Source: a virus
Length of the DNA stretch: 64,000 bases
Virus record (IMG/VR): IMGVR_UViG_3300033149_003715
Span: 64,001 to 128,000 of that record
Direction: 5' to 3' (one strand)
The stretch's first letter is position 1. Each line of letters begins with the position of its first letter. Under the pieces are notes generated by a model. The model worked only from the letters and a program-made list of their open reading frames with translations, made no database searches and was not told the origin of the DNA. A program made the position numbers and the translations under genes. This document shows positions 10,013 through 58,719 of this stretch, one piece after another.

Positions 10013-13000
10013 TCATCTAATTTCACAGGCTTTACCAGAACATTCGGATGTAGCATCAAAATTGGTATTATCCTGTTCCTCAATCATTTTGGTATAATCT
10101 ACTGCTATTAATTTTTCTTGAATGTCACAATATAATTTCCAGTTGTGTACATCTTTTAGGCAATATGTTAATTTTTTATAATTACCATCAAAATATTTTT
10201 CGGCAAATTTTTTAGCTTTTTCAATAAATCTCATTTTATTAGAAGCAGTAAGAAGTTGAGCATGTTTAATACCATTACTAAATATACCATTGCTTAATTT
10301 AGTACCAAATTGACTATCTAATAAAGCATCACATGCTGCCCATAAATTATTATCAAAGGCGTGTAATCCTAATTCAATGAGTCCAGAACACCAAATAGCA
10401 GCATCTCCATATTCTCTAATTATTTCTCTTGAATTTAAAACAGAAGTAAATGGTGCTTGTGGAAAATCTTTGTCACAAGTGGTAGAAACAAGTGTTATTC
10501 CCGCAAGACTGTCTTTATGATCATAAATATATTTTGCTACATCATCCCATTCATGGGGTAACACTACAATCGTATTCGACACGTTATGGGTTAACCAGGG
10601 TTTTATACACAACAATGGATTTTTACCATATTCTACCCAATTTTCTTGTGTACTTTGAACAATTTTCAGCATTTCGATAGCTGGTAGTTGATTTTTAGTT
10701 TTTGCACCATCTGGTATTTCTATAGGAAAACGAATAACTTGATCTGTATCTGTTGCCGAATTTAAACTTGGTTCACATGCCTGTGGATTATGTTGTTTGA
10801 AAAACTGAAACGATGTTTCTAAATGATTAGCTTGTACTGTACGCAAAAATCTTTTAGAATGGTGTGGTGATATGCTAGATGAGGTACCCAAAAAACATCC
10901 AGAATTACCATCTGGCTTGATCAACGTTGTGCGAGCAGCAGCCCCAATATTAATTCTCTTGGAAATATCTTCATTTGTATCTCGTATAATATGAGCACCT
11001 TTTTGTTGTATTTGTGGGTTAAGTGTAATTTCAACGTTTTCCATCATACCAGTCATTGATACTCCAATTAAATATTCTTGTTCAATAATTTTTTGAGATA
11101 TTTTACCAAGATATCCAGCATCAGTAAAACCAGCTTGTAGTGTTCCTATAATTGCTGCTGCTTTACAACGATTATAAAAATCTTCTTCATTTCGCAAATT
11201 ACTACAATTAATAGTGCTTAAATTACATACTGCCCAACCGGAATACTGTCTATATCTTGGGTACATGCCTACTTCACCACATGGGTTGATAACCATTTCC
11301 GTTGAATCCGTCCACAAAAACCCTGGATCGCCAAATTCTTTCGTATATTGAATAATTTTTTCAAAATCTTTAAACGTTGTAGAATCTCTTAAAAGAACAA
11401 TTGAATTGTTTGCTCGTGCTCTTTGTGGATTTTCCTTATACCATTGACCAGTCTTACACTTTATCATTTCTTCGTCGTTGTGACTAAATAAACTTAAATA
11501 TGATGAGTTATGTGTAAGCACTCCATCAGCATAAAAACAATGATTTTTTTCTACCTCAAGATCGTATACATCTTTTATGATATTAGTTTCTTCAACTTTT
11601 TGCACTATGGCAGGAATGAAATTATTTATACCTAGTTTTTGTGCTTGTGTGTATGAAATGTAATTTTTATCACCCCAAATTTTACACTTGTCTTTACTTG
11701 TTGTAGCTAATGTGCGAGGAAATACCAATTCATCTTCTATTTTATTCCATTTATAGATAGTATAATACATTGAAGCTCTAACACAATACTTTTTAAGTAA
11801 TTTAGCAACTTTGTCATCAAACACAGGAGAAACTGTTCTAACTGTATATTTGGTAAGTTTATTTTCCTTATTTGGGTATTGTGTACTTAATTTTGTTGGA
11901 ATACCTAAAGATGAATATAAAATTTGAATATCCCGAGCAAAAGAATGATATCTTGTAGATACTAAACATAATTGTTTATGTTGTCTACTTGTTTGATGAT
12001 ATATTTGATCACTTGCATCTAATACTCCAGCCAAAAACATCAATTTAATCTTCGGTTTTGCCTCAAAAATACATTGTGGTACTACAATTGTTTGACTAGG
12101 TTGCTTAAAGTGAGTTAAAAAATATTCAGCGACTTGATATTGTTCATATTCCTGTATATGTTTCTTTGTATATATTGAATCATCAGTTAAAATATATCCA
12201 AATAGCCATAATGTGTCTTTATTGAGTTTTATTTTTGGTAACTTAAATTTTCGACCACGGCATACATCTTTATTTAAAATTAAGGTATGTTGTGGTTGTA
12301 GTTGAGATGTTGGTATCCACTGAATATCTCCATACATATTTTTTGCTACTGCCCACACATGTTCTTGCGTAGAATATAATTCCCCCAAATTAGTAGTAAT
12401 CTTAATAAGCTTCCTTTTTCCGTTGTACCATTTATTTGTTACTTTTCGGTATCCATTATTTGTTTTTACCAAATCCCCGATTTTAACATCTTGAATAAGT
12501 TTATATCCATATTTCGTATAAATTTTAGTATTTTTTGGTAAACATCGTCTTTGTCCACCACTTAACACCATATCTGAAATATAGCATATAATATCGTGAG
12601 CGTCGATTGGTTTTAGTTTTTTTTGGTTATTTGTTATACACCTGTCTAACAAATTTTGAATATTTTCCAAGGCTTTTTTTAATGGTGCTGGTCCGGGGGC
12701 TTTTCCAGTACCAGAACTTAAATACGATCCTTCTGGTCTAATGTGGGAAAAATCAAATTTAACATTACACATATAATAGTCTGGGAATACTGGATCTTCA
12801 AAATATGATGAAAGCAAAACCCCAACAGCATCTGCCCATCCCTCAATAGTATCTGGAATAATATATGTTTTTTCTTTAATTTTAGATTTATCTGCTATAT
12901 CTTGGGGGAGTTTAGCAAATTCTGGTAATTGTTTGATATGATGTTTTTGTATAGAAATACCACAACCAGCACCAACTAACAACATCCACGCAATTTCCTG

Positions 13001-13327
13001 AAAAACTCTTAATCTATCACAGTATGAAGCACTACAATTATAACAACGCATATTTTTCTTGAGCATTGATTGTCCGGCATGTTGTAAACATCTTTGACTA
13101 CCCAATACTCTTTTTTGTTTCATTAAACGATATGCCCATTTAATTTCTGTTTTTAATTTTGGATCTTGTTCAAAAAATGGAGCATATTTTACCAACATCA
13201 TATCAAGTACACGTGCTATTGCTTCCTCCCAAGTTTCACGACGTTTTTTGTCTGGTAACCAACGAGCATATTTAGATACAAAAGTGTATTTTTGCAATTC
13301 CTTTAAGGGTGTAAGAGGTTTGGTCAT
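10013..13327 (-). CDS. nrdJ: adenosylcobalamin-dependent (class II) ribonucleotide reductase, intein-containing
   Basis: SKYARW..RRETW, YNC, GGQRR/S, NPCGE, CNL, IKP.G, C-terminal CSGKACE. Confidence 0.93.
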   Translation of the reverse strand: MTKPLTPLKELQKYTFVSKYARWLPDKKRRETWEEAIARVLDMMLVKYAPFFEQDPKLKTEIKWAYRLMKQKRVLGSQRCLQHAGQSMLKKNMRCYNCSASYCDRLRVFQEIAWMLLVGAGCGISIQKHHIKQLPEFAKLPQDIADKSKIKEKTYIIPDTIEGWADAVGVLLSSYFEDPVFPDYYMCNVKFDFSHIRPEGSYLSSGTGKAPGPAPLKKALENIQNLLDRCITNNQKKLKPIDAHDIICYISDMVLSGGQRRCLPKNTKIYTKYGYKLIQDVKIGDLVKTNNGYRKVTNKWYNGKRKLIKITTNLGELYSTQEHVWAVAKNMYGDIQWIPTSQLQPQHTLILNKDVCRGRKFKLPKIKLNKDTLWLFGYILTDDSIYTKKHIQEYEQYQVAEYFLTHFKQPSQTIVVPQCIFEAKPKIKLMFLAGVLDASDQIYHQTSRQHKQLCLVSTRYHSFARDIQILYSSLGIPTKLSTQYPNKENKLTKYTVRTVSPVFDDKVAKLLKKYCVRASMYYTIYKWNKIEDELVFPRTLATTSKDKCKIWGDKNYISYTQAQKLGINNFIPAIVQKVEETNIIKDVYDLEVEKNHCFYADGVLTHNSSYLSLFSHNDEEMIKCKTGQWYKENPQRARANNSIVLLRDSTTFKDFEKIIQYTKEFGDPGFLWTDSTEMVINPCGEVGMYPRYRQYSGWAVCNLSTINCSNLRNEEDFYNRCKAAAIIGTLQAGFTDAGYLGKISQKIIEQEYLIGVSMTGMMENVEITLNPQIQQKGAHIIRDTNEDISKRINIGAAARTTLIKPDGNSGCFLGTSSSISPHHSKRFLRTVQANHLETSFQFFKQHNPQACEPSLNSATDTDQVIRFPIEIPDGAKTKNQLPAIEMLKIVQSTQENWVEYGKNPLLCIKPWLTHNVSNTIVVLPHEWDDVAKYIYDHKDSLAGITLVSTTCDKDFPQAPFTSVLNSREIIREYGDAAIWCSGLIELGLHAFDNNLWAACDALLDSQFGTKLSNGIFSNGIKHAQLLTASNKMRFIEKAKKFAEKYFDGNYKKLTYCLKDVHNWKLYCDIQEKLIAVDYTKMIEEQDNTNFDATSECSGKACEIR
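11507..12544 (-). mobile_element. intein (346 aa) with degenerate LAGLIDADG endonuclease
   Basis: starts CLPKNT (Cys262), T.EH block B, VYDLEV block F, ends THN followed by Ser; FLAGVLDASD motif. Confidence 0.9.
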
Positions 13328-28982: not shown

Positions 28983-29122
28983 ATCTTCTCTATTTGTACT
29001 GCATCTACAATTTCCGTTCCGTATTGTATTTTTCCATTTTTTAACGGTAATGGAACTCGAATTTTTGTAGGATCTAAATCAATAGGATCAATGATATACA
29101 TTTGTGAAACCTTTCTATTCAT
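28913..29122 (-). CDS. hypothetical protein
   Basis: CPHCCGTG motif. Confidence 0.45.
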   Translation of the reverse strand: MNRKVSQMYIIDPIDLDPTKIRVPLPLKNGKIQYGTEIVDAVQIEKICPHCCGTGKIKVKVPKKNMKEK

Positions 29123-30083
29123 ATGTATATGTCCAACATTTTTCGCAGGGAGTACCTGTCATATCACCTTTTAACATAGCAGCCCTCAAATCTTGATACT
29201 TTTGACTATGCCAAGCTCCCATGATACCAATTTCTTTTACATTACCCATATCAAAACTGTGATCGTGATTAAAACAACATCCAGCAGCGATATTATCGTA
29301 AGTAATACGTAACTCAGAAAATAATGCAAAACAATAACCTTGCTGATTGTTGTTTTGTACTCCATATCGTCCAAAATTACCTTTTACTGGTTTTTTACCC
29401 ATTAATTCTAAATCTTCAATTGCCATACCACCAGAAGAATATAATGGAAGATAATACATTTCATCAACATATGGTGCAATTTCTTTTAATGCTTTTTCCA
29501 TTTTCTCAAATTGTTCGTCGTCATATTTTACACTAGATGCAAATAATCCGCACGAGTAATTATGTTCTTGGCGAAGATAGTATGCGTCCTTAATATTACG
29601 AATAATGGTATGAAAATGTTTTTTATTAACACCAGTTATTTCTTCGTATTGATTTTCATCTGCATAATTAAAACTCCATTTGAGACTATCCAAACCAGCA
29701 TCCATGCATTGTTTTACTTTCTCTTTATTAGCTTCTTTTCCATTGGTTGTTAAAAATACATATTCAATGCCAGCATCTTTGGCATATTTGATGGCTTGTG
29801 GTAATCGTTTATCTAGCATTGATTCCCCGAGATAGAACATACCTGCTTCTTTAATTCCCAAATCCACCATTTCATTAATGATTGATTTGTAGTCGTCAAA
29901 GTTCATATATCCAGGTTTTCTAAGATTTTGGGCAACACCACAATATTTACATTTGTGAGAACAAATTCCACCAACTAATTCAATTTTGATACTTTTTGGT
30001 GGTGGTGGTTTTAAGCACAATCGTTCTGGTGAAACTTGTGTAACTTGATCTACTTTATCTGTAATTGTAAACTTTTTTGTCAT
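29115..30083 (-). CDS. radical SAM / SPASM(twitch) domain protein
   Basis: CSHKCKYC, GES, LTTNG, C-terminal C...CC...GN....W.S..C..C. Confidence 0.88.
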   Translation of the reverse strand: MTKKFTITDKVDQVTQVSPERLCLKPPPPKSIKIELVGGICSHKCKYCGVAQNLRKPGYMNFDDYKSIINEMVDLGIKEAGMFYLGESMLDKRLPQAIKYAKDAGIEYVFLTTNGKEANKEKVKQCMDAGLDSLKWSFNYADENQYEEITGVNKKHFHTIIRNIKDAYYLRQEHNYSCGLFASSVKYDDEQFEKMEKALKEIAPYVDEMYYLPLYSSGGMAIEDLELMGKKPVKGNFGRYGVQNNNQQGYCFALFSELRITYDNIAAGCCFNHDHSFDMGNVKEIGIMGAWHSQKYQDLRAAMLKGDMTGTPCEKCWTYTYE

Positions 30084-30108
30084 TTTCAAAGTCCTTTTGT
30101 TGGTATAG

Positions 30109-30933
30109 TTATTGCCATTTATTAACCATGCTATCTCTTTCACTTTGACTAAAACTGCTATCAATGGGCAATCCTCTATGTAGACGCGACCTCATATCTA
30201 CAACTTTGCTACAAAGTGTATTATATACAGTACCACATATGTTCGTATCATATTGAGCAATAGCTGATGTTTTAATGCCGAGACTTCTTCCTTCATCAAA
30301 AGCATTAATATCGGCACCTAAAAATTGAAAATGCCAATTATACTTATTCTGTTGATGTTCAATCATTTCTTTAACTTGTGTTTTTGTAAACTCTATACTG
30401 CTATTTTCGTGACCATCCGTAACTATAATAAAGATAACACATCCAGGTTTTTGGTTTTCTTCTAATTTATCTAAACGTAAACCAACTTCATTAATTGTTC
30501 GCCCTACAGCATCTAAAAGAGCAGTACAACCCCGTGGTACTAACTTATATGATCCCACATCTTGAATTGGTGTTCCATTATATAAAAAATTATACTTTGT
30601 ATCAAATTCTACCAAGGTAAAATTAGCATTTCCAATAGCTTCTTTTTGTTTTTGTATAAATGTGTTAATTCCACCTTCTGCATCAGATTGACATGATACC
30701 ATAGAACCACTTCTATCTACTACTAATGTAATATCTGTTAAATCTTTTCTCATTATAAATATCTTTCTATTATCATTTTGAACTTGAATTGGTGTTCCAT
30801 TATATAAAAAATTATATTTTGTACCAAATTCTACCAAAGTAAAATTAGCATTTCCAATAGCTTCTTTTTGTTTTTGTATAAATGTGTTAATTCCACTTTC
30901 TGCAAATGTAATATCTGTTAAATCTTTTCTCAT
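30109..30933 (-). CDS. von Willebrand A domain protein with duplicated N-terminus
   Basis: MIDAS DRSGSM, TALLDA, TDGHENSS; ancestral start at 30753. Confidence 0.85.
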   Translation of the reverse strand: MRKDLTDITFAESGINTFIQKQKEAIGNANFTLVEFGTKYNFLYNGTPIQVQNDNRKIFIMRKDLTDITLVVDRSGSMVSCQSDAEGGINTFIQKQKEAIGNANFTLVEFDTKYNFLYNGTPIQDVGSYKLVPRGCTALLDAVGRTINEVGLRLDKLEENQKPGCVIFIIVTDGHENSSIEFTKTQVKEMIEHQQNKYNWHFQFLGADINAFDEGRSLGIKTSAIAQYDTNICGTVYNTLCSKVVDMRSRLHRGLPIDSSFSQSERDSMVNKWQ

Positions 30934-38318: not shown

Positions 38319-39194
38319 TTACATATCACTTATGCCTTTTCTTAGATGGTCCCATGTTTCACCAGATTTCAATTCTTCTAAATTCCATTGTGTGTATGCC
38401 AAGTTATATACCCATTGTTGTCGAAATTCAATTGGAGGTGGTTGTACATCATCAATATGTTCTAAGTCTTTAGTGCAAATATCCCATACCATTGATCCTT
38501 CATCGTAGGCGTATACTGGTATATTATGTAACAATGAGTCTACGCCAGTATTAGAATTAAAAGTAACTGTACACCACGTATTAGATAAATCAGCCACCAA
38601 GTCTTTATTTTGTGATGTTGGCACTCCTTTTATTTTTTTAAATATATTTTTACCACTAGGATGTGGTCTGAATATAATTTTACGTTTTGTGTATTTTTGT
38701 AGTTTTTTGACTGTGTTATGACACCACTTTATAAAATCAATATGTTGTACAGATGAATCCCAAGGAATTTGTCCGCATAACAAAATATTATCACCGCGTT
38801 TTGCCGACCAATCTTCTAATGCTATACCAAGTTTATTCCATCTATCCGGAGGACTATTATCATTTAGAAAATTTGCACGATTGTTTAGTCCCCCCCAGCC
38901 AACCATGTAATATCTATCTCTATGTAAAAATCCTCGTTCAACAACAATGTTTGATTTGCCATCGAAGGGTTTTTGTAAATGCTTATAATGTTGTGTAATT
39001 AATCTTTCAGTTAGTTTACCTCTAAAAGACACTTTTTTAAGAATACCAAAAGTAACTAATATGTCACATGGTTGATAGCGACTATGTATATTGTGGCATT
39101 GTACTTTAACATTATATTTAGAAATACCTTTAGCAAATCCATAAATAATTGGTTTGTGATATTTATTATTTATAGTATACAATCTAACTAACAT
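38319..39194 (-). CDS. capsule-synthesis (KpsC/KpsS-like) glycosyltransferase
   Basis: ERGF, GQ.PWDSS, FRPHP, NSNTGVDSLL..IPV, LAYTQW...E...G..W. Confidence 0.72.
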   Translation of the reverse strand: MLVRLYTINNKYHKPIIYGFAKGISKYNVKVQCHNIHSRYQPCDILVTFGILKKVSFRGKLTERLITQHYKHLQKPFDGKSNIVVERGFLHRDRYYMVGWGGLNNRANFLNDNSPPDRWNKLGIALEDWSAKRGDNILLCGQIPWDSSVQHIDFIKWCHNTVKKLQKYTKRKIIFRPHPSGKNIFKKIKGVPTSQNKDLVADLSNTWCTVTFNSNTGVDSLLHNIPVYAYDEGSMVWDICTKDLEHIDDVQPPPIEFRQQWVYNLAYTQWNLEELKSGETWDHLRKGISDM

Positions 39195-40101: not shown

Positions 40102-40287
40102 TCAAGAAGCATAGTATTCTTTTAATTGTTCCAAAGTACTAACTAATTTTTTTTTGTATTTATGTGTACGATTACTTCTACAATAGTTACAAGAACCATG
40201 ATTTCTACAAGTTCTATCAAATCGTTTCGATTTACGGTATTGTTGGCGTTTTTCTTTGCCGTATAAAATCGCCTTATTTAAACTCAT
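40102..40287 (-). CDS. small conserved phage protein
   Basis: MSL.KAI..GKEKR..Y..SK.FD.TCRNHG.C.YC..NR. Confidence 0.65.
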   Translation of the reverse strand: MSLNKAILYGKEKRQQYRKSKRFDRTCRNHGSCNYCRSNRTHKYKKKLVSTLEQLKEYYAS

Positions 40288-41218
40288 AGTTTTTCTCGAT
40301 GTACTTCTTTAGGTGTTCCCATGGTAATCCTTTGGCCATTTCTTTAATTGACCACTGTGCATATGCTAAATCATATAAAAACTGCGTGCGGTCGTGAAAT
40401 CGCGGACTATTTACGTGTGATAATTCTGTTTCTGCTATATTATACACAATATTCATTGGATCATTACAAATAACTTGAACACCTGCTAAAATAGAATCAA
40501 CAGAAGCATTTGTAGTTTTTGCTATAGTTACATATGACTTTTGTAAGTCATCGTAAATATTAGATGGAAAATGGAGATTAGAAAAAAAGAGTTCCCCGTG
40601 GTAGAGAAATTTATTGGGGAACTTTTTTTGATTTGGATGACAACGATAAAGAATTGGCCGGTCTGTATGCTTATTTAGCTTTACAAGAAGTTGTTCAAAC
40701 CAACCTATGGTATCTATGTTTTGAGTTGAGATACCTTTTTCGTGTTGTCCCAAGATAAGAATATAACTACGAGTTTTAGAAAAATGTTGCCAAGGGTCTA
40801 GTTTAAGTAAGACATTTGGTACATCTGAATTCTTAAGTAATGTTTCCCATCTATCTGGCGGACTATTTAAGTTGTTGTATATTGCATTTCCTTTAATACC
40901 CCCGATACCAACAGCCATGTATCGGTCAAGTGATTGTGAATTCCTATTATTTAATAAGCTAAAAAATCCCGTATCAATAATAATTCTTGGTTTGTTGTAA
41001 TGCTGACAATGTTCCTTAATAACATATCTTAAATCTTTACCTAGATAATGTGTATAATCACATACTTGAACTGTTACATCACAATGTTGTAGTAAGTGTG
41101 TGTTATATTCATATATAGAAATCGGTGTATCACCTTGACTTAATACACCATTACTAAATGCGTTGCATGCTCCTATACCTACTTTATCTTTTTTAGTATA
41201 ACAAATGCCTACTTTCAT
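40274..41218 (-). CDS. capsule-synthesis (KpsC/KpsS-like) glycosyltransferase
   Basis: DTGF, PPDRW, ILGQ, YRCHP, TNASVDSILAG, LAYAQW...E...G..W. Confidence 0.7.
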   Translation of the reverse strand: MKVGICYTKKDKVGIGACNAFSNGVLSQGDTPISIYEYNTHLLQHCDVTVQVCDYTHYLGKDLRYVIKEHCQHYNKPRIIIDTGFFSLLNNRNSQSLDRYMAVGIGGIKGNAIYNNLNSPPDRWETLLKNSDVPNVLLKLDPWQHFSKTRSYILILGQHEKGISTQNIDTIGWFEQLLVKLNKHTDRPILYRCHPNQKKFPNKFLYHGELFFSNLHFPSNIYDDLQKSYVTIAKTTNASVDSILAGVQVICNDPMNIVYNIAETELSHVNSPRFHDRTQFLYDLAYAQWSIKEMAKGLPWEHLKKYIEKNYEFK

Positions 41219-41231
41219 TATTAGATTCCTT

Positions 41232-41366
41232 TTAATTTGTTAAATGATGCTCGATAATACTTAATTGTCCACACGCAGCACCATTATCAATTTCTGCTTG
41301 TGTAGCTAATGCAACAGCGTATTCGTAACCACTTTCTTCTAGACTTTGCACAATAGTTTCCATCAT
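41232..41366 (-). CDS. 44-aa peptide carrying the RlmN/Cfr C-terminal AACGQL motif (not in ORF track)
   Basis: MMETIVQSLEESGYEYAVALATQAEIDNGAACGQLSIIEHHLTN; AAGGAG RBS at 41370..41375. Confidence 0.8.
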   Translation of the reverse strand: MMETIVQSLEESGYEYAVALATQAEIDNGAACGQLSIIEHHLTN

Positions 41367-41378
41367 AATCTCCTTAAT

Positions 41379-42188
41379 TTAAACTAGGTTCATACCTGTA
41401 ATAATACCATTTCCAAGGGCATGTTTCTCAGAAATTTCATTTTTATTAATTGGGGATAACTTAACAAAAAAATGTTCAGGAGGAAAAAACTTCTTTAATT
41501 GTGTGATATCAAAATCGTCTTCACTCACTAAAGTTAAATTTAATGTTGTTTTCAGCCTTGAATTAGTACGAATCTGACCTAACTCTTCAATCGGTATTTT
41601 GTTTTTATATGGAATTAATTCATTACGATATTTATCTACTAACGAATGTAATGAAACCTGTAGTGTAATGTTATTTTTAATCCAGCTAAAATCAGATCCA
41701 CAAATACCTATAGTTGATACGTAATGATGTGTATTAGGATATTTCGCGGATATTTTTTGTATAGCTTCTTTTACCGCATTAATATTCAAAAACGGTTCAC
41801 CCATTCTAGTATAGTTAATCTTAAATTCTTGACTATCTTGTGGGTGATGTTGTGAGTTTCGATTTAAAACAAGTTCTATCTGTGCTACAATTTCATCCAC
41901 CGATAAATTTCTCCACTTTTTTAACTTTCCAGTAGCACAAAATTTACATCTGACCGGACAACCACTCATAACAGATACTCCGATCATCCATCTTTCAGAT
42001 CTATCACCTAATTTTGTATTGGATAATTTGTTTTGCTTTCTTCCTATAGCATTTTTAGTATAAAAGGGTAAAAATGAGTCTGTAGTTTCTATTGGATATC
42101 CGTCTGGCGTTTGTAATGCATACACAACACCATTAGCAAACCGTTTATACTTACTGATTTTTAACATATGCTTTCTCAAATTCTTCAC
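41379..42188 (-). CDS. RlmN/Cfr-like radical SAM enzyme lacking the C-terminal Cys segment
   Basis: IET, VS..SGCPVRCKFCATG, RNL..DEIV.Q, MGEP..N, VST.G, SLH, R..LIP. Confidence 0.85.
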   Translation of the reverse strand: MKNLRKHMLKISKYKRFANGVVYALQTPDGYPIETTDSFLPFYTKNAIGRKQNKLSNTKLGDRSERWMIGVSVMSGCPVRCKFCATGKLKKWRNLSVDEIVAQIELVLNRNSQHHPQDSQEFKINYTRMGEPFLNINAVKEAIQKISAKYPNTHHYVSTIGICGSDFSWIKNNITLQVSLHSLVDKYRNELIPYKNKIPIEELGQIRTNSRLKTTLNLTLVSEDDFDITQLKKFFPPEHFFVKLSPINKNEISEKHALGNGIITGMNLV

Positions 42189-42721
42189 TCAAAAAATACC
42201 CACCTGTTATCATCATCAATTTTGGGCGACTCATCTATATGAGCAATATAATTTTTTAATTCTTTCCAGGTAGAAAAAATATACTGATGAGGAATGGTTC
42301 CAAACAACCAGTTAGGAGTATTTTGTTTACTTTGTTTTATCATAACTAGACACGGTTTTTTAAGTCGATTACACCAAAACAATTCTTCCCAAGTACCACA
42401 CATTACAATATCTAAATCAAGATATGTAATGGTAAAGCTTGCAAGATCCACGCACCTTAAATCAAAATGACGAATTTGCTTAATAATTTTAGTCAACTTG
42501 TCATATTCTTCATTCTCCCTCCATTTTTTCATTTGTGGTAGAAGTTGTATTTCGTCATTGACACAATTATTTTTAGGTTTATTGGTGGGATCAAGAACTA
42601 TAATTTTTCTATCTACCAAAAATTTGGTAATATTTCTTCTCCAACCTGTACCCTGATCTACCGCATAATCAATCGGACCAATTAAGTAACACACATTATT
42701 TGCTAAACGGTTTAGTTTCAT
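42185..42721 (-). CDS. nucleoside 2-deoxyribosyltransferase-like protein
   Basis: YL.GPID...G.GWR, DP, DL..VD.A, GT.EE. Confidence 0.72.
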   Translation of the reverse strand: MKLNRLANNVCYLIGPIDYAVDQGTGWRRNITKFLVDRKIIVLDPTNKPKNNCVNDEIQLLPQMKKWRENEEYDKLTKIIKQIRHFDLRCVDLASFTITYLDLDIVMCGTWEELFWCNRLKKPCLVMIKQSKQNTPNWLFGTIPHQYIFSTWKELKNYIAHIDESPKIDDDNRWVFFE

Positions 42722-42807
42722 TTGTACTTTACACAATGTGCCATATGAAGATAAAGAAGCCAAATTTTATGTATTCGTCCCATCAATATTTAGGTTAACA
42801 ATAAAAT

Positions 42808-43220: not shown

Positions 43221-44123
43221 TCATTTTATATTGTACATTCTTCCCTTACTTGTCTTTAGAACATACCCCTTGTTAACCAAAAATGGCTCAATAATATTTT
43301 CTATTGTGTAACGGTCAATTTTTGTCATTTCCATTAATGGTTTTAATCCAACAGGACGCTTTATTTTCAGTAGACATGAAAGATATAATTTATCATTAGT
43401 AGTTAATCCGTTCTTATCTACCCCTTTTAGTTTAAGAGCAAATTGAACAGTTTTTTCATCAACTAATCGTACAGATTGGCTAACTATATAATCTCTAATC
43501 CAAATTAAATATGTATTCAAAATACGTGGCGTACCACGTGCAATTTTTGCTATATGTTTAATGCAATTGTGTGGCATATTAATATTAAGCTTTGATAAAT
43601 GCAATTGTGCCAATGTAGTCAACTCATCCACCGAATACAATTGTAAATGTTCTTGTATGGGAAATCTGTCAATCAATGGTAAATTTAAACTACCAATCTG
43701 AGTAGAACATGCTATGCAAGTAAATTTTGGCAAATCTATAACAATTGCTTCTTTGTCTATTTTATTAGCAACTAAATTAAGTTTAAAATCTTCCAATACT
43801 GTTAATAGTAAATCTTGACACCGCCTATTAAGGCAATGTATTTCGTCTGCAATCAAAATGTCTTGATATTGTAATCTAACTAAATATGGTAATAATTGTT
43901 TAGGATTGGTAACATTTGCACAGTTAACAACTATAGGAGTTTTGTTAAACTCACGACTAATTGCTAACGCTATAGTTGTTTTACCTAAACCTGGTCCACG
44001 GGACCCTAATAATATATGAGGCAGTATATCTTGCCTTTTTTGAGAAGATTTAATGTGGATTTTCAATCTAGTAAGTACATTTGATTGCCCTATGATATCA
44101 GACAATGATGTTGGTCTTAACAT
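43221..44123 (-). CDS. ruvB: Holliday junction branch migration helicase RuvB
   Basis: LRP.SL.D.IGQ, PGLGKTT, DEIH, L.DRF, RGTPR, IEPFL, T..GR. Confidence 0.9.
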   Translation of the reverse strand: MLRPTSLSDIIGQSNVLTRLKIHIKSSQKRQDILPHILLGSRGPGLGKTTIALAISREFNKTPIVVNCANVTNPKQLLPYLVRLQYQDILIADEIHCLNRRCQDLLLTVLEDFKLNLVANKIDKEAIVIDLPKFTCIACSTQIGSLNLPLIDRFPIQEHLQLYSVDELTTLAQLHLSKLNINMPHNCIKHIAKIARGTPRILNTYLIWIRDYIVSQSVRLVDEKTVQFALKLKGVDKNGLTTNDKLYLSCLLKIKRPVGLKPLMEMTKIDRYTIENIIEPFLVNKGYVLKTSKGRMYNIK

Positions 44124-57303: not shown

Positions 57304-58719
57304 TTACTGTAGACTTCTTTGTCTGATTGTATCGAATTTTTGAGTGACTAATAATCGTCCATTACGATATACCTCCACTAATTTATTTATGTGCTGGGGT
57401 AGATAGTCATAATTTACTGTCTTAAAACATTTTTCGTCGTCCGCATAAATAAGCCTCAATCGTCCCTTTTTTGATTGTTTATTTTTGTCTTTAGGTCGTT
57501 TAGATATATCATGCCATGTATTACATCTTTTTTGTGCTGAACATTTGAAGGCGAAAGCTTGGGTGTCTCTGTTAATTTTTTGTAGTAATCCGCCACCCAT
57601 ACCAAATACTAGGCTTTCTACTGAGAATTTGTTTTCTACAACGATTTTACATATTTCTGTGATAGTATTTACACTCAAACCATCTCCCCATAACACACCT
57701 ACAACTGGATTTATTACAGTATACCCTTTGGAATTAACATGATATCCAAACGTATTTGCCAATTGTTTTAATATCCAGACTATTTGCTTACCTGGATGTT
57801 TGTGTTGTTGTGTTATACTATCTGGTCTAATAACCACTTTAGCTATACCAGATTTGTTTGCTTTTCTGTTAATTATTTGCTGTTTGAATTTGGGTATAAT
57901 GTTTTCCACAAAGTTATAAATATCATACGAATCCGCGACTATACTTAGAATTCCATTCGGGTATTTTTGGAGCAATTCGTTAACTAACGTTACTTCTCCT
58001 TGATGATCGTATGATGTCATTATTGAGTGTTCGGTTGCGGGGACACTAAAACCTAATGTTTTTGGATCAGCTTGGTAATATTCTATACCTTCTAATAGGG
58101 CTGGAACTGTATCGGTTCCTTTGAAATTAATTAAGTGTGCTAATCCACCTAAACTTGCAGATTCATTAGAGCTTACACCACGATAACCAAAATCGTGAAG
58201 CATAAAATCTAAACACTGTGTTTGTTCTGACGATATATTAAGATATTCAGCCAGTGTTCTTTTAGTGTAATAACTAATAGTAGCTACAGTTGATGGATAC
58301 CATACATGTGTTAGCAAAGATTCCACAAAATTAGTTAACCAATAACATTTTGGATCTGTATTTTCCACTGTCATCATTACATTATTAATATCAACTGGCG
58401 TACCTTCTGGCACTGCCTTGATTGATAGTGGTAAATACCCATTGTGCTTTTTAACTATATGCAACCAGCCATCTTCGTTGAATAAATTTTGTCCAAAATG
58501 ATTTTGGATAATTGTTTTGGCCACTGTAATTTTTTCTCGCGTGACTCTCCTTCCTACCATATTTTTAAGTAAAATAGATTGTAAACCAAAAAAAACAGTT
58601 TTTGGATATTTTGCCCATTTTCTACATTCTAAGTAGGAATAAATTGTCCGTGTGTTTTTTGGGTACATTTTGTAATGAGCAAATTTGTAACTATCCGATA
58701 ATAAACAGATATTATCCAT
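57304..58719 (-). CDS. nadV: nicotinamide phosphoribosyltransferase (NAMPT)
   Basis: DSYK..H...YP, FFGLQ, WYP.TVAT, LHDFG.RG, VPATEHS, DSYD, IRPDS, GDG, FGMGGGLLQK.NRDT..FA.K. Confidence 0.93.
   Translation of the reverse strand: MDNICLLSDSYKFAHYKMYPKNTRTIYSYLECRKWAKYPKTVFFGLQSILLKNMVGRRVTREKITVAKTIIQNHFGQNLFNEDGWLHIVKKHNGYLPLSIKAVPEGTPVDINNVMMTVENTDPKCYWLTNFVESLLTHVWYPSTVATISYYTKRTLAEYLNISSEQTQCLDFMLHDFGYRGVSSNESASLGGLAHLINFKGTDTVPALLEGIEYYQADPKTLGFSVPATEHSIMTSYDHQGEVTLVNELLQKYPNGILSIVADSYDIYNFVENIIPKFKQQIINRKANKSGIAKVVIRPDSITQQHKHPGKQIVWILKQLANTFGYHVNSKGYTVINPVVGVLWGDGLSVNTITEICKIVVENKFSVESLVFGMGGGLLQKINRDTQAFAFKCSAQKRCNTWHDISKRPKDKNKQSKKGRLRLIYADDEKCFKTVNYDYLPQHINKLVEVYRNGRLLVTQKFDTIRQRSLQ

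Follow-up and report, generated by a model that had tools for sequence, protein, structure and literature searches.

The subject of this analysis is a pair of adjacent genes on the minus strand of a 64,000-nucleotide stretch of viral DNA (IMG/VR virus record IMGVR_UViG_3300033149_003715, positions 64,001 to 128,000; the whole stretch is referred to below as the window). The first gene, a 269-residue open reading frame (ORF) that starts from GTG and occupies 41379..42188, encodes the core of a radical S-adenosylmethionine (SAM) enzyme similar to RlmN and Cfr. The second, a 44-residue ORF at 41232..41366, encodes an acidic peptide homologous to the C-terminal helix, strand and cysteine loop of the same enzymes. 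Both ORFs are present at the coordinates reported in an earlier note on this DNA and, as stated there, lie in frame, a TAA and four codons containing AAGGAG apart. The sizes given in that note hold for the ORFs, while the likely starts differ: the core probably begins at Met8 (42167), because homologues begin at the equivalent residue, and would then comprise 262 residues, and the peptide probably begins at the second ATG, which is preferred for its spacing from AAGGAG, and would comprise 43 residues.

The core ends in ...GMNLV, which coincides with a stop position conserved across the family. Its stop codon TAA (41379-41381) and a 12-nucleotide spacer together occupy 41367..41381, also on the minus strand; the spacer codons ATT AAG GAG ATT (41367-41378) are in frame, include the Shine-Dalgarno-like AAGGAG at 41370-41375 and are followed by ATG ATG at 41361-41366. 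The junction reads ...GTT TAA ATT AAG GAG ATT ATG ATG GAA.... Within the core, likewise on the minus strand, the CPVRCKFC sequence (41937..41960; Cys77, Cys81 and Cys84 in the 269-residue ORF) constitutes the CxxxCxxC motif of the [4Fe-4S]/SAM cluster, and the position of RlmN C118 and Cfr C105 is occupied, in alignments to RlmN, by a glycine encoded by GGA (41979..41981). A family-specific insertion of about 25 residues (LPFYTKNAIGRKQNKLSNTKLGD; 42015..42089) lies between the β-hairpin extension and the strand that bears this glycine. The peptide consists of a helix, the strand GYEYAVALAT and the loop AEIDNGAACGQL; the TGT codon at 41271..41273 (minus strand) encodes its Cys32, the equivalent of the methyl-carrying cysteine of RlmN (C355) and Cfr (C338).

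The core matches Pfam Radical_SAM (PF04055) with an E-value of 3.9e-8, and Radical_SAM and Fer4_12 are the only Pfam families recognized in it. The NCBIfam model of RlmN (TIGR00048) scores 72.5 bits (E 2.9e-20), far under its 290-bit cut-off, and the curated cut-off of Cfr (TIGR04432) is missed as well (56.2 vs 550 bits). In a phmmer search of the PDB, RlmN and Cfr chains are the sole matches. There the C118 segment of E. coli RlmN pairs with the window segment SERWMIGVSVMSGC / SERWMIGVSVMSGCPVRCKFC, which places C118 on glycine, in agreement with the earlier note; the glycine lines up exactly with the residue mutated to alanine in the C118A crosslink structures (4PL1, 5HR6/7). The peptide segment ...ATQAEIDNGAACGQL aligns gap-free with ...RSQFGIDIDAACGQL of Cfr, and Cys32 can therefore be equated with C338 of Cfr and C355 of RlmN; the suggestion that the C-terminal segment of the enzyme resides on the small ORF is thus borne out, its AACGQL aligning with the C355/C338 loop. 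Among 26 diverse cores with glycine at the C118 position (Gly-type; alignment A1), the glycine never varies and neither do the three cluster cysteines; conservation extends to no further cysteine, and the fourth one of the window core (GICGSDF) is not conserved either. The peptide has a single cysteine, which is invariant (alignment A2). Another cysteine that could take over the resolving role, which the earlier note proposed to look for, is conserved neither in the core nor in the peptide.

Class A methylases contain two conserved cysteines. One of them (C355 in RlmN, C338 in Cfr) carries the methyl group and forms a covalent adduct, whereas the other (C118 in RlmN, C105 in Cfr) is indispensable for resolution of the crosslink and is now thought to abstract the C2/C8 proton; alanine or serine variants at C118/C105 give isolable protein-RNA adducts (PMC9692996; bioRxiv 10.64898/2026.02.27.707579). 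The window pair is a two-gene, phage-borne variant of these enzymes. It shares with RlmN (TIGR00048; PDB 3RF9/3RFA, 4PL1, 5HR6/5HR7, 6FZ6), the C2-methyltransferase acting on A2503 of the 23S ribosomal RNA (rRNA) as well as on A37 of transfer RNA (tRNA), the radical SAM fold, the β-hairpin extension, the CxxxCxxC, MGEP and SLH...R..L.P motifs and the AACGQL tail. Unlike in RlmN, the C-terminal element is the product of a separate gene, C118 is replaced by an invariant glycine, the N-terminal helical domain (residues 1-78) is absent, and the insertion of about 25 residues is present.

As the two ORFs of the window are in frame, with only the TAA and four codons between them, the split might be ascribed to a nonsense mutation or a sequencing error, or be bridged by readthrough of the TAA, leaving either a dead gene or a normal single-chain enzyme. 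This caveat, raised in the earlier note, is excluded for the family by the relative frames, the intervening genes and the distant homologues, and next to no probability remains for it. A protein database search with the core returned 2034 matches, of which the best 120 were examined for their lengths and ends. The window's own copy aside, these 120 are 63-71% identical to the core and, with one exception, 257-287 residues long, and the sequences read among them stop at a common ...G.NL. position. Protein P0072 (324 residues) was considered as a fused form and rejected, its extra length being an N-terminal extension. Overall, the stop position of the core is constant in more than 100 related loci, which keep two genes and not uninterrupted single ORFs.

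The separate peptide gene recurs with comparable regularity. A scan for the CGQL motif revealed a peptide ORF in all but one (L026) of the 29 viral-contig loci found with the core, and a search of viral contigs with a peptide profile yielded 232 encoding stretches. Among 103 core-peptide pairs from viral contigs, the peptide lies in frame 2 relative to the core in 68, in frame 1 in 19 and in frame 0 in 16, so that 87 of the 103 are out of frame; 85 pairs are adjacent, the other 18 are 0.3-2.7 kb apart with whole genes in between, and none of the cores is fused. Depending on the collection, the peptide is found 0.3-2.7 kb downstream of the core (mostly 0.8-1.8 kb) in about 20-50% of loci. The 42 Gly-type cores on genome contigs are all unfused, and for 33 of them a separate peptide lies at a distance of at most 3 kb. 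Homologues with identities down to about 35% are still encoded as two genes, in three relative frames and sometimes with intervening genes, and the split is maintained across phage families.

Four cultured phages carry the split at 35-64% core identity, all with glycine at the C118 position. Separate peptides of 43 and 40 residues are present in Kehishuvirus 'tikkala' and Moorella phage MTATph1, respectively, and Pectobacterium phage Arno162 (Ounavirinae) has a 60-residue peptide encoded two small ORFs downstream of the core. In Vibrio phage D479 (L003 3863-4087), a single peptide ORF is composed of two tandem 32-residue modules (…AGFDAGLAIATDAEV.AGAACGQMAIL). Of their 96 nucleotides, 20 differ between the modules, and the codon differences are synonymous in 15 cases and nonsynonymous in 2, which indicates that both copies are maintained. 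In the 23-codon core of the peptide, 46 distinct DNA versions show 11,514 synonymous against 4,347 nonsynonymous codon differences, and the residues that never vary (G, A, T, E, C, G and Q) draw on all of their codons. Judged by these codon comparisons, the peptide is under strong purifying selection; the core is under purifying selection as well.

The viral genome of the record (144,173 bp, with terminal repeats and 32% G+C) contains four tRNAs, none of them a suppressor, and 106 of its 158 long ORFs end in TAA, which makes this the commonest stop codon. Readthrough or recoding of the TAA was rejected on these grounds and because the relatives are out of frame. By DnaB, the closest cultured phage is at most 29% identical and no close cultured relative was found; owing to this low identity, no family, crAss-like phages included, is assigned to the virus. 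By all these sequence comparisons the split is genuine, old and under selection, and the two-gene arrangement is almost certainly functional.

Loss of the resolving cysteine is associated with the split. This was assessed among the 150 best representatives at 50% identity. All 27 of those with glycine at the C118 position are without a CGQ tail, whereas 22 of the 31 with cysteine match the CGQ tail pattern in cis; of the remaining 9, at least some carry CGM variants or are truncated. On genome contigs, glycine is found in 42 of 42 unfused cores, and all 26 Cys-type proteins are fused, none of them having a separate peptide. In the sequences compared, the tail is split off or missing where the C118 position holds glycine, and fused where it holds cysteine. 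The insertion of about 25 residues (LPFYTKNAIGRKQN...) follows the same division: in alignment A3 it is present only in Gly-type cores and absent from all fused relatives, and the peptide is the counterpart of the fused proteins' helix, strand and loop.

The predicted structures place the peptide in the position vacated by the tail. The alignments of core and peptide were co-folded together with SAM and a [4Fe-4S] cluster, which gave a score of 0.86 against 0.07 for the best control; the mark for this measure is reached by 58 of 80 solved complexes and by 2 of 110 mismatched pairs. The runs share at least 84% of contacts, and the predicted local distance difference test value (pLDDT) of the partner is at least 70. 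In the models, peptide residues 14-18 pair with core strand residues 233-237, and the peptide loop contacts core residues 120-122 (before MGEP) and, in the cluster motif, 76-79. Further contacts of the peptide are with the N-terminal hairpin and with residues 33, 37, 40-42, 45, 48 and 53 (262-residue numbering) of the insertion. By this co-folding, which the earlier note had proposed, the peptide is predicted to dock where the C-terminus of RlmN sits; this is a likeness to RlmN and not proof of binding. A read-through fusion of core and peptide, built purely as a modelling device, has a pLDDT of 89.5 and a predicted TM-score (pTM) of 0.90. Compared with residues 79-366 of E. coli RlmN (5hr6/3rfa), it gives Z-scores of 26.8-27.0 and root-mean-square deviations of 2.4-2.5 Å over 260-267 residues, followed by Cfr (Z 18.4) and the next family (13.6). 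The structural alignment starts at residue 79 of RlmN and residue 65 of Cfr, and the model contains no equivalent of the N-terminal helical domain; since the match begins only at RlmN residue 79, the N-terminal RNA-binding domain is taken to be absent.

Some features of the pair bear on its substrate. Cfr, the C8-methyltransferase of A2503 (PDB 9P0P; C105A variant seen crosslinked to rRNA by cryo-electron microscopy, bioRxiv 10.64898/2026.02.27.707579), has the same loop length between the last strand and the methyl-carrying cysteine as the peptide, and the peptide has equivalents of its F330 and A336 backbone positions. In Cfr, adenine is bound at N1 and N6 by backbone atoms of these two residues (bioRxiv 10.64898/2026.02.27.707579). 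Given this equality of loop length, an adenine-type acceptor can reasonably be proposed by analogy. The side chains with which Cfr contacts the ribose, R327 and T325, correspond to invariant alanines in the peptide, and the pair further differs from Cfr in the glycine at the position of C105 and in the missing N-terminal domain. As the N-terminal helical domain anchors RNA in both RlmN and Cfr (bioRxiv 10.64898/2026.02.27.707579), its absence, together with the replacement of R327 and T325 by alanine, means that A2503 of rRNA and A37 of tRNA should not be assumed as targets. The isoelectric points (6.1-9.5) and net charges of the cores follow no consistent trend and are uninformative on nucleic-acid binding.

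The favoured interpretation of these features, although it falls somewhat short of an even chance, is that the peptide serves as a detachable cysteine carrier which is consumed stoichiometrically. The core keeps the cluster and SAM site and the β-hairpin extension, with glycine in place of the resolving (or base) cysteine; the AACGQL loop and the final helix and β-strand would be provided in trans by the 43-residue peptide. According to the models, the cycle would begin with docking of the peptide, its strand being added to core strand FFVKLS and the family-specific insertion acting as a clamp. By analogy with RlmN and Cfr, a first SAM would S-methylate Cys32 of the peptide, and a second would give rise to a 5'-deoxyadenosyl radical that takes a hydrogen atom from the S-methyl group. 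The resulting thiomethylene radical would add to an sp2 carbon of the adenine-type substrate. Without a C118-type cysteine, the methyl group would not be released and a peptide-S-CH2-base species would persist; because enzyme and peptide are separate, the adduct could depart and a fresh peptide bind.

A stable crosslink between peptide and nucleic acid is plausible in the light of the engineered enzymes RlmN C118A/S and Cfr C105A/S, which have lost the cysteine at the very position of the window's glycine and accumulate stable protein-S-CH2-adenine RNA crosslinks. Unlike these laboratory dead ends, in which the whole enzyme is trapped, the window pair has its attacking cysteine on a small peptide, in a natural and conserved arrangement. 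The adduct would be either the end product or an intermediate trimmed later by other enzymes. If the peptide is consumed, the adduct itself would more likely than not be the final product, although overall this outcome has well under an even chance. The enzyme might then be described as a multiple-turnover "peptidyl-methylene transferase" that welds the 43-residue peptide through Cys-S-CH2 to C2 or C8 of adenine, after which the core reloads; this is possible but fairly unlikely. Its acceptor adenine could belong to RNA, DNA, or a signalling or metabolic nucleotide. In relatives, the adduct may be cut back to a small thio-alkyl mark by the products of the accessory genes for radical SAM enzymes and methyltransferases. 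Consumption of the peptide and a stable adduct are favoured by the invariant loss of the resolving residue, by the strict coupling of this loss to the presence of the attacking cysteine on a cheap separate peptide, by the lack of an alternative cysteine, and by the tandem peptide of phage D479.

Several observations weigh against a consumed peptide. To our knowledge, no biological role exists for an acidic peptide of 43 residues attached to nucleic acid. Each of the 104 loci checked has one copy of the peptide gene. The earlier note asked whether homologues keep the glycine at the C118 position and the ribosome-binding site before the peptide; the glycine is kept, and a strong ribosome-binding site is not general among the loci. 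The favourable co-folding result may only echo the solved single-chain structures of RlmN. In addition, 19 of the 150 representatives constitute a third class, in which the C118 position holds Ile, Val, Met, Thr or Asn and the tail (...SNCGQ) is fused; this class has only four conserved cysteines, none besides those of the cluster and the tail. Such fused relatives, unless they are suicidal, make resolution of the crosslink without C118 conceivable. One gene of the SNCGQ clade (P0205 / L200 419-2186) overlaps a gene for a thioredoxin-reductase-like flavoprotein, which suggests help in trans. Members of the clade occur in cellular-looking contigs.

With these relatives in mind, the pair can also be regarded as a true catalytic C-methyltransferase in which the peptide is a permanent, recycled small subunit and the role of C118 is filled by another group, be it a carboxylate (e.g., the invariant Glu25 of the peptide), water admitted by the glycine, or, in trans, a thiol or redoxin of the host. 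Methylated adenine, or a similar base, would then be formed in RNA, DNA or a nucleotide. The fused relatives without C118 are presumably catalytic, and the coupling of one of them to a thioredoxin-reductase-like gene fits this explanation, as do the single-copy peptide, its tight docking in the model and the spacing of the adenine-binding loop, which is exactly that of Cfr. Moreover, C118 is now seen as a general base and not as a disulfide partner, and a base is in principle replaceable. According to the literature, however, alanine or serine at C118/C105 of RlmN and Cfr allows no rescue, and a recycled subunit offers no reason either for the constant pairing of cysteine loss with the split of the tail or for the tandem peptide of D479. 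A catalytic methyltransferase seems a possible but fairly unlikely explanation.

A further group of points against the consumed peptide concerns the evolution of the Gly-type cores. One derived sublineage with the sequence RKIGVSL.SGC (P0181 / L115 3039-3878 and 12 other representatives) has the last helix and strand in cis and ends in ...GF.YA.R, without the cysteine loop, and on the one contig seen (L115) no CGQ peptide was found near the core. This sublineage would, from its sequence, be devoid of both mechanistic cysteines, and Gly-type cores may accordingly be capable of other chemistry. In a quick tree of 87 representatives, which cannot count independent origins, the Cys-type and SNCGQ-type proteins fall in one clade (support 94), with the Gly-type proteins outside. 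The linkage of glycine and split may thus trace to one or a few evolutionary events.

The genes found between core and peptide in relatives introduce another possibility. In six loci (L008 6799-8004, L019 4327-5884, L022 6794-7995, L023 6804-7969, L018 6817-8165 and L094 2745-3077), a gene pair is nested between the two. Its first member, present in two copies in L019, encodes a protein of 95-150 residues whose C-terminus always conforms to D-P-C-x(8-11)-[ST]-x-C; the second encodes a radical SAM enzyme of about 295 residues with only generic similarity to MoaA, viperin and PflA. By its composition this pair looks like a separate precursor-plus-maturase module. In L005 (6826-7991), the insert comprises genes for a 243-residue radical SAM protein and a 148-residue class I methyltransferase, and the peptide lies about 1.15-1.2 kb downstream. 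The same spacing occurs in about half of the peptide-bearing genome-contig loci (L121, L122, L124, L125, L128, L132-L135, L137, L140, L144 and others), the content of the insert being known from L005 alone.

On this background, the peptide might itself be substrate or product, in the manner of peptides that are made on ribosomes and modified after translation (RiPPs): the core would S-methylate or otherwise modify Cys32, and the modified peptide, perhaps processed by the accessory genes of relatives, would be an active molecule or a carrier of methyl groups or sulfur. A small peptide gene adjoining a radical SAM gene is in keeping with such a system, and so are the many relatives with extra genes between core and peptide (pairs of a small protein and an enzyme) and the repeated module of D479, which resembles that of some RiPP precursors. 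The homology of the peptide to RlmN and Cfr nevertheless extends residue by residue through their structural C-terminus (helix, strand and loop), and the peptide is conserved over its full length instead of being divided into a leader and a variable core. Pfam detects neither a SPASM nor an RRE domain in the core. Finally, the accessory genes of relatives (the radical SAM enzyme of about 295 residues, the DPC protein of about 100 residues, and the 243-residue radical SAM protein with its methyltransferase) were not found in the genome to which the window belongs and are therefore not needed for the basic function. A RiPP-like role is improbable in view of these points.

There are phage genes in which a split, for instance through insertion of a homing endonuclease, has left two ORFs with products that reassemble. 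The window pair resembles such genes in that adjacent ORFs encode parts of one fold, and differs from them in that its split is ancient, fixed in position and coupled to the loss of a catalytic residue. In L020 (6792-7607), core and peptide do have a gene for a GIY-YIG/NUMOD1-type homing endonuclease between them. An origin of the split by such an insertion was considered and rejected: the halves in the window are separated by 12 nucleotides, and L020 alone, among more than 100 loci, has an endonuclease.

Searches of the literature turned up no account of RlmN or Cfr in split form, nor of what an RlmN-like protein does in phages, and the split design appears to be an undescribed enzyme variant that recurs in many unrelated phages. 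The two cysteines are regarded as the hallmark of class A radical SAM methylation, as defined by RlmN and Cfr; in this widespread natural phage lineage, one of them is gone and the other has shifted to a small peptide. If the pair still methylates, it would reveal a way to complete the chemistry in the absence of C118; if not, it would show that the "trapped" crosslink is used in nature as a product. A peptidyl-methylene transferase, if confirmed, would mean that phages modify nucleic acids or nucleotides in a way of a new kind. The target of the pair could reveal a new phage strategy, for example in host takeover, nucleic-acid marking or interference with nucleotide signals. Cultured carriers comprise Kehishuvirus 'tikkala', Pectobacterium phages Arno162 and Wc4, Yersinia phage P778, Moorella phage MTATph1 and Vibrio phage D479.

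When ORFs within 3.5 kb of the core were clustered over 103 loci for a hint at the target, no neighbours shared with the window emerged, and the recurrent ones are lineage-specific only. Immediately upstream of the core in the window, a gene at 42185-42763 (minus strand) belongs to a family of phage nucleoside 2-deoxyribosyltransferases, with an ESM Atlas feature score of 0.97 and a structure TM of 0.94. The stop of this gene overlaps the GTG with which the core ORF starts, and its own start is probably at residue 15. This gene has no match in Pfam, NCBIfam or PHROGs, and no homologue of it was found adjoining the core-peptide module in other loci. Downstream of the peptide, two paralogous proteins of about 300 residues with the motifs NSPPDRW and LAY.QW are encoded at 38319-39194 and 40274-41218 (both minus strand), the nearer one beginning 13 nucleotides past the stop of the peptide; neither matches Pfam, NCBIfam or PHROGs. 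A cysteine-rich ORF of 61 residues lies at 40102-40287. The window contains a second radical SAM gene at 29115-30164 (minus strand; 349 residues; PF04055, E 3.2e-16); PHROGs give no match for it, and the accessory radical SAM families of other loci are unrelated to it. Other genes on the minus strand encode a RuvB-like AAA+ protein (43221-44123), a nicotinamide phosphoribosyltransferase (57304-58719) and a ribonucleotide reductase-like protein of 1104 residues (10013-13327), in which the match falls into two stretches with a helicase-like piece between them.

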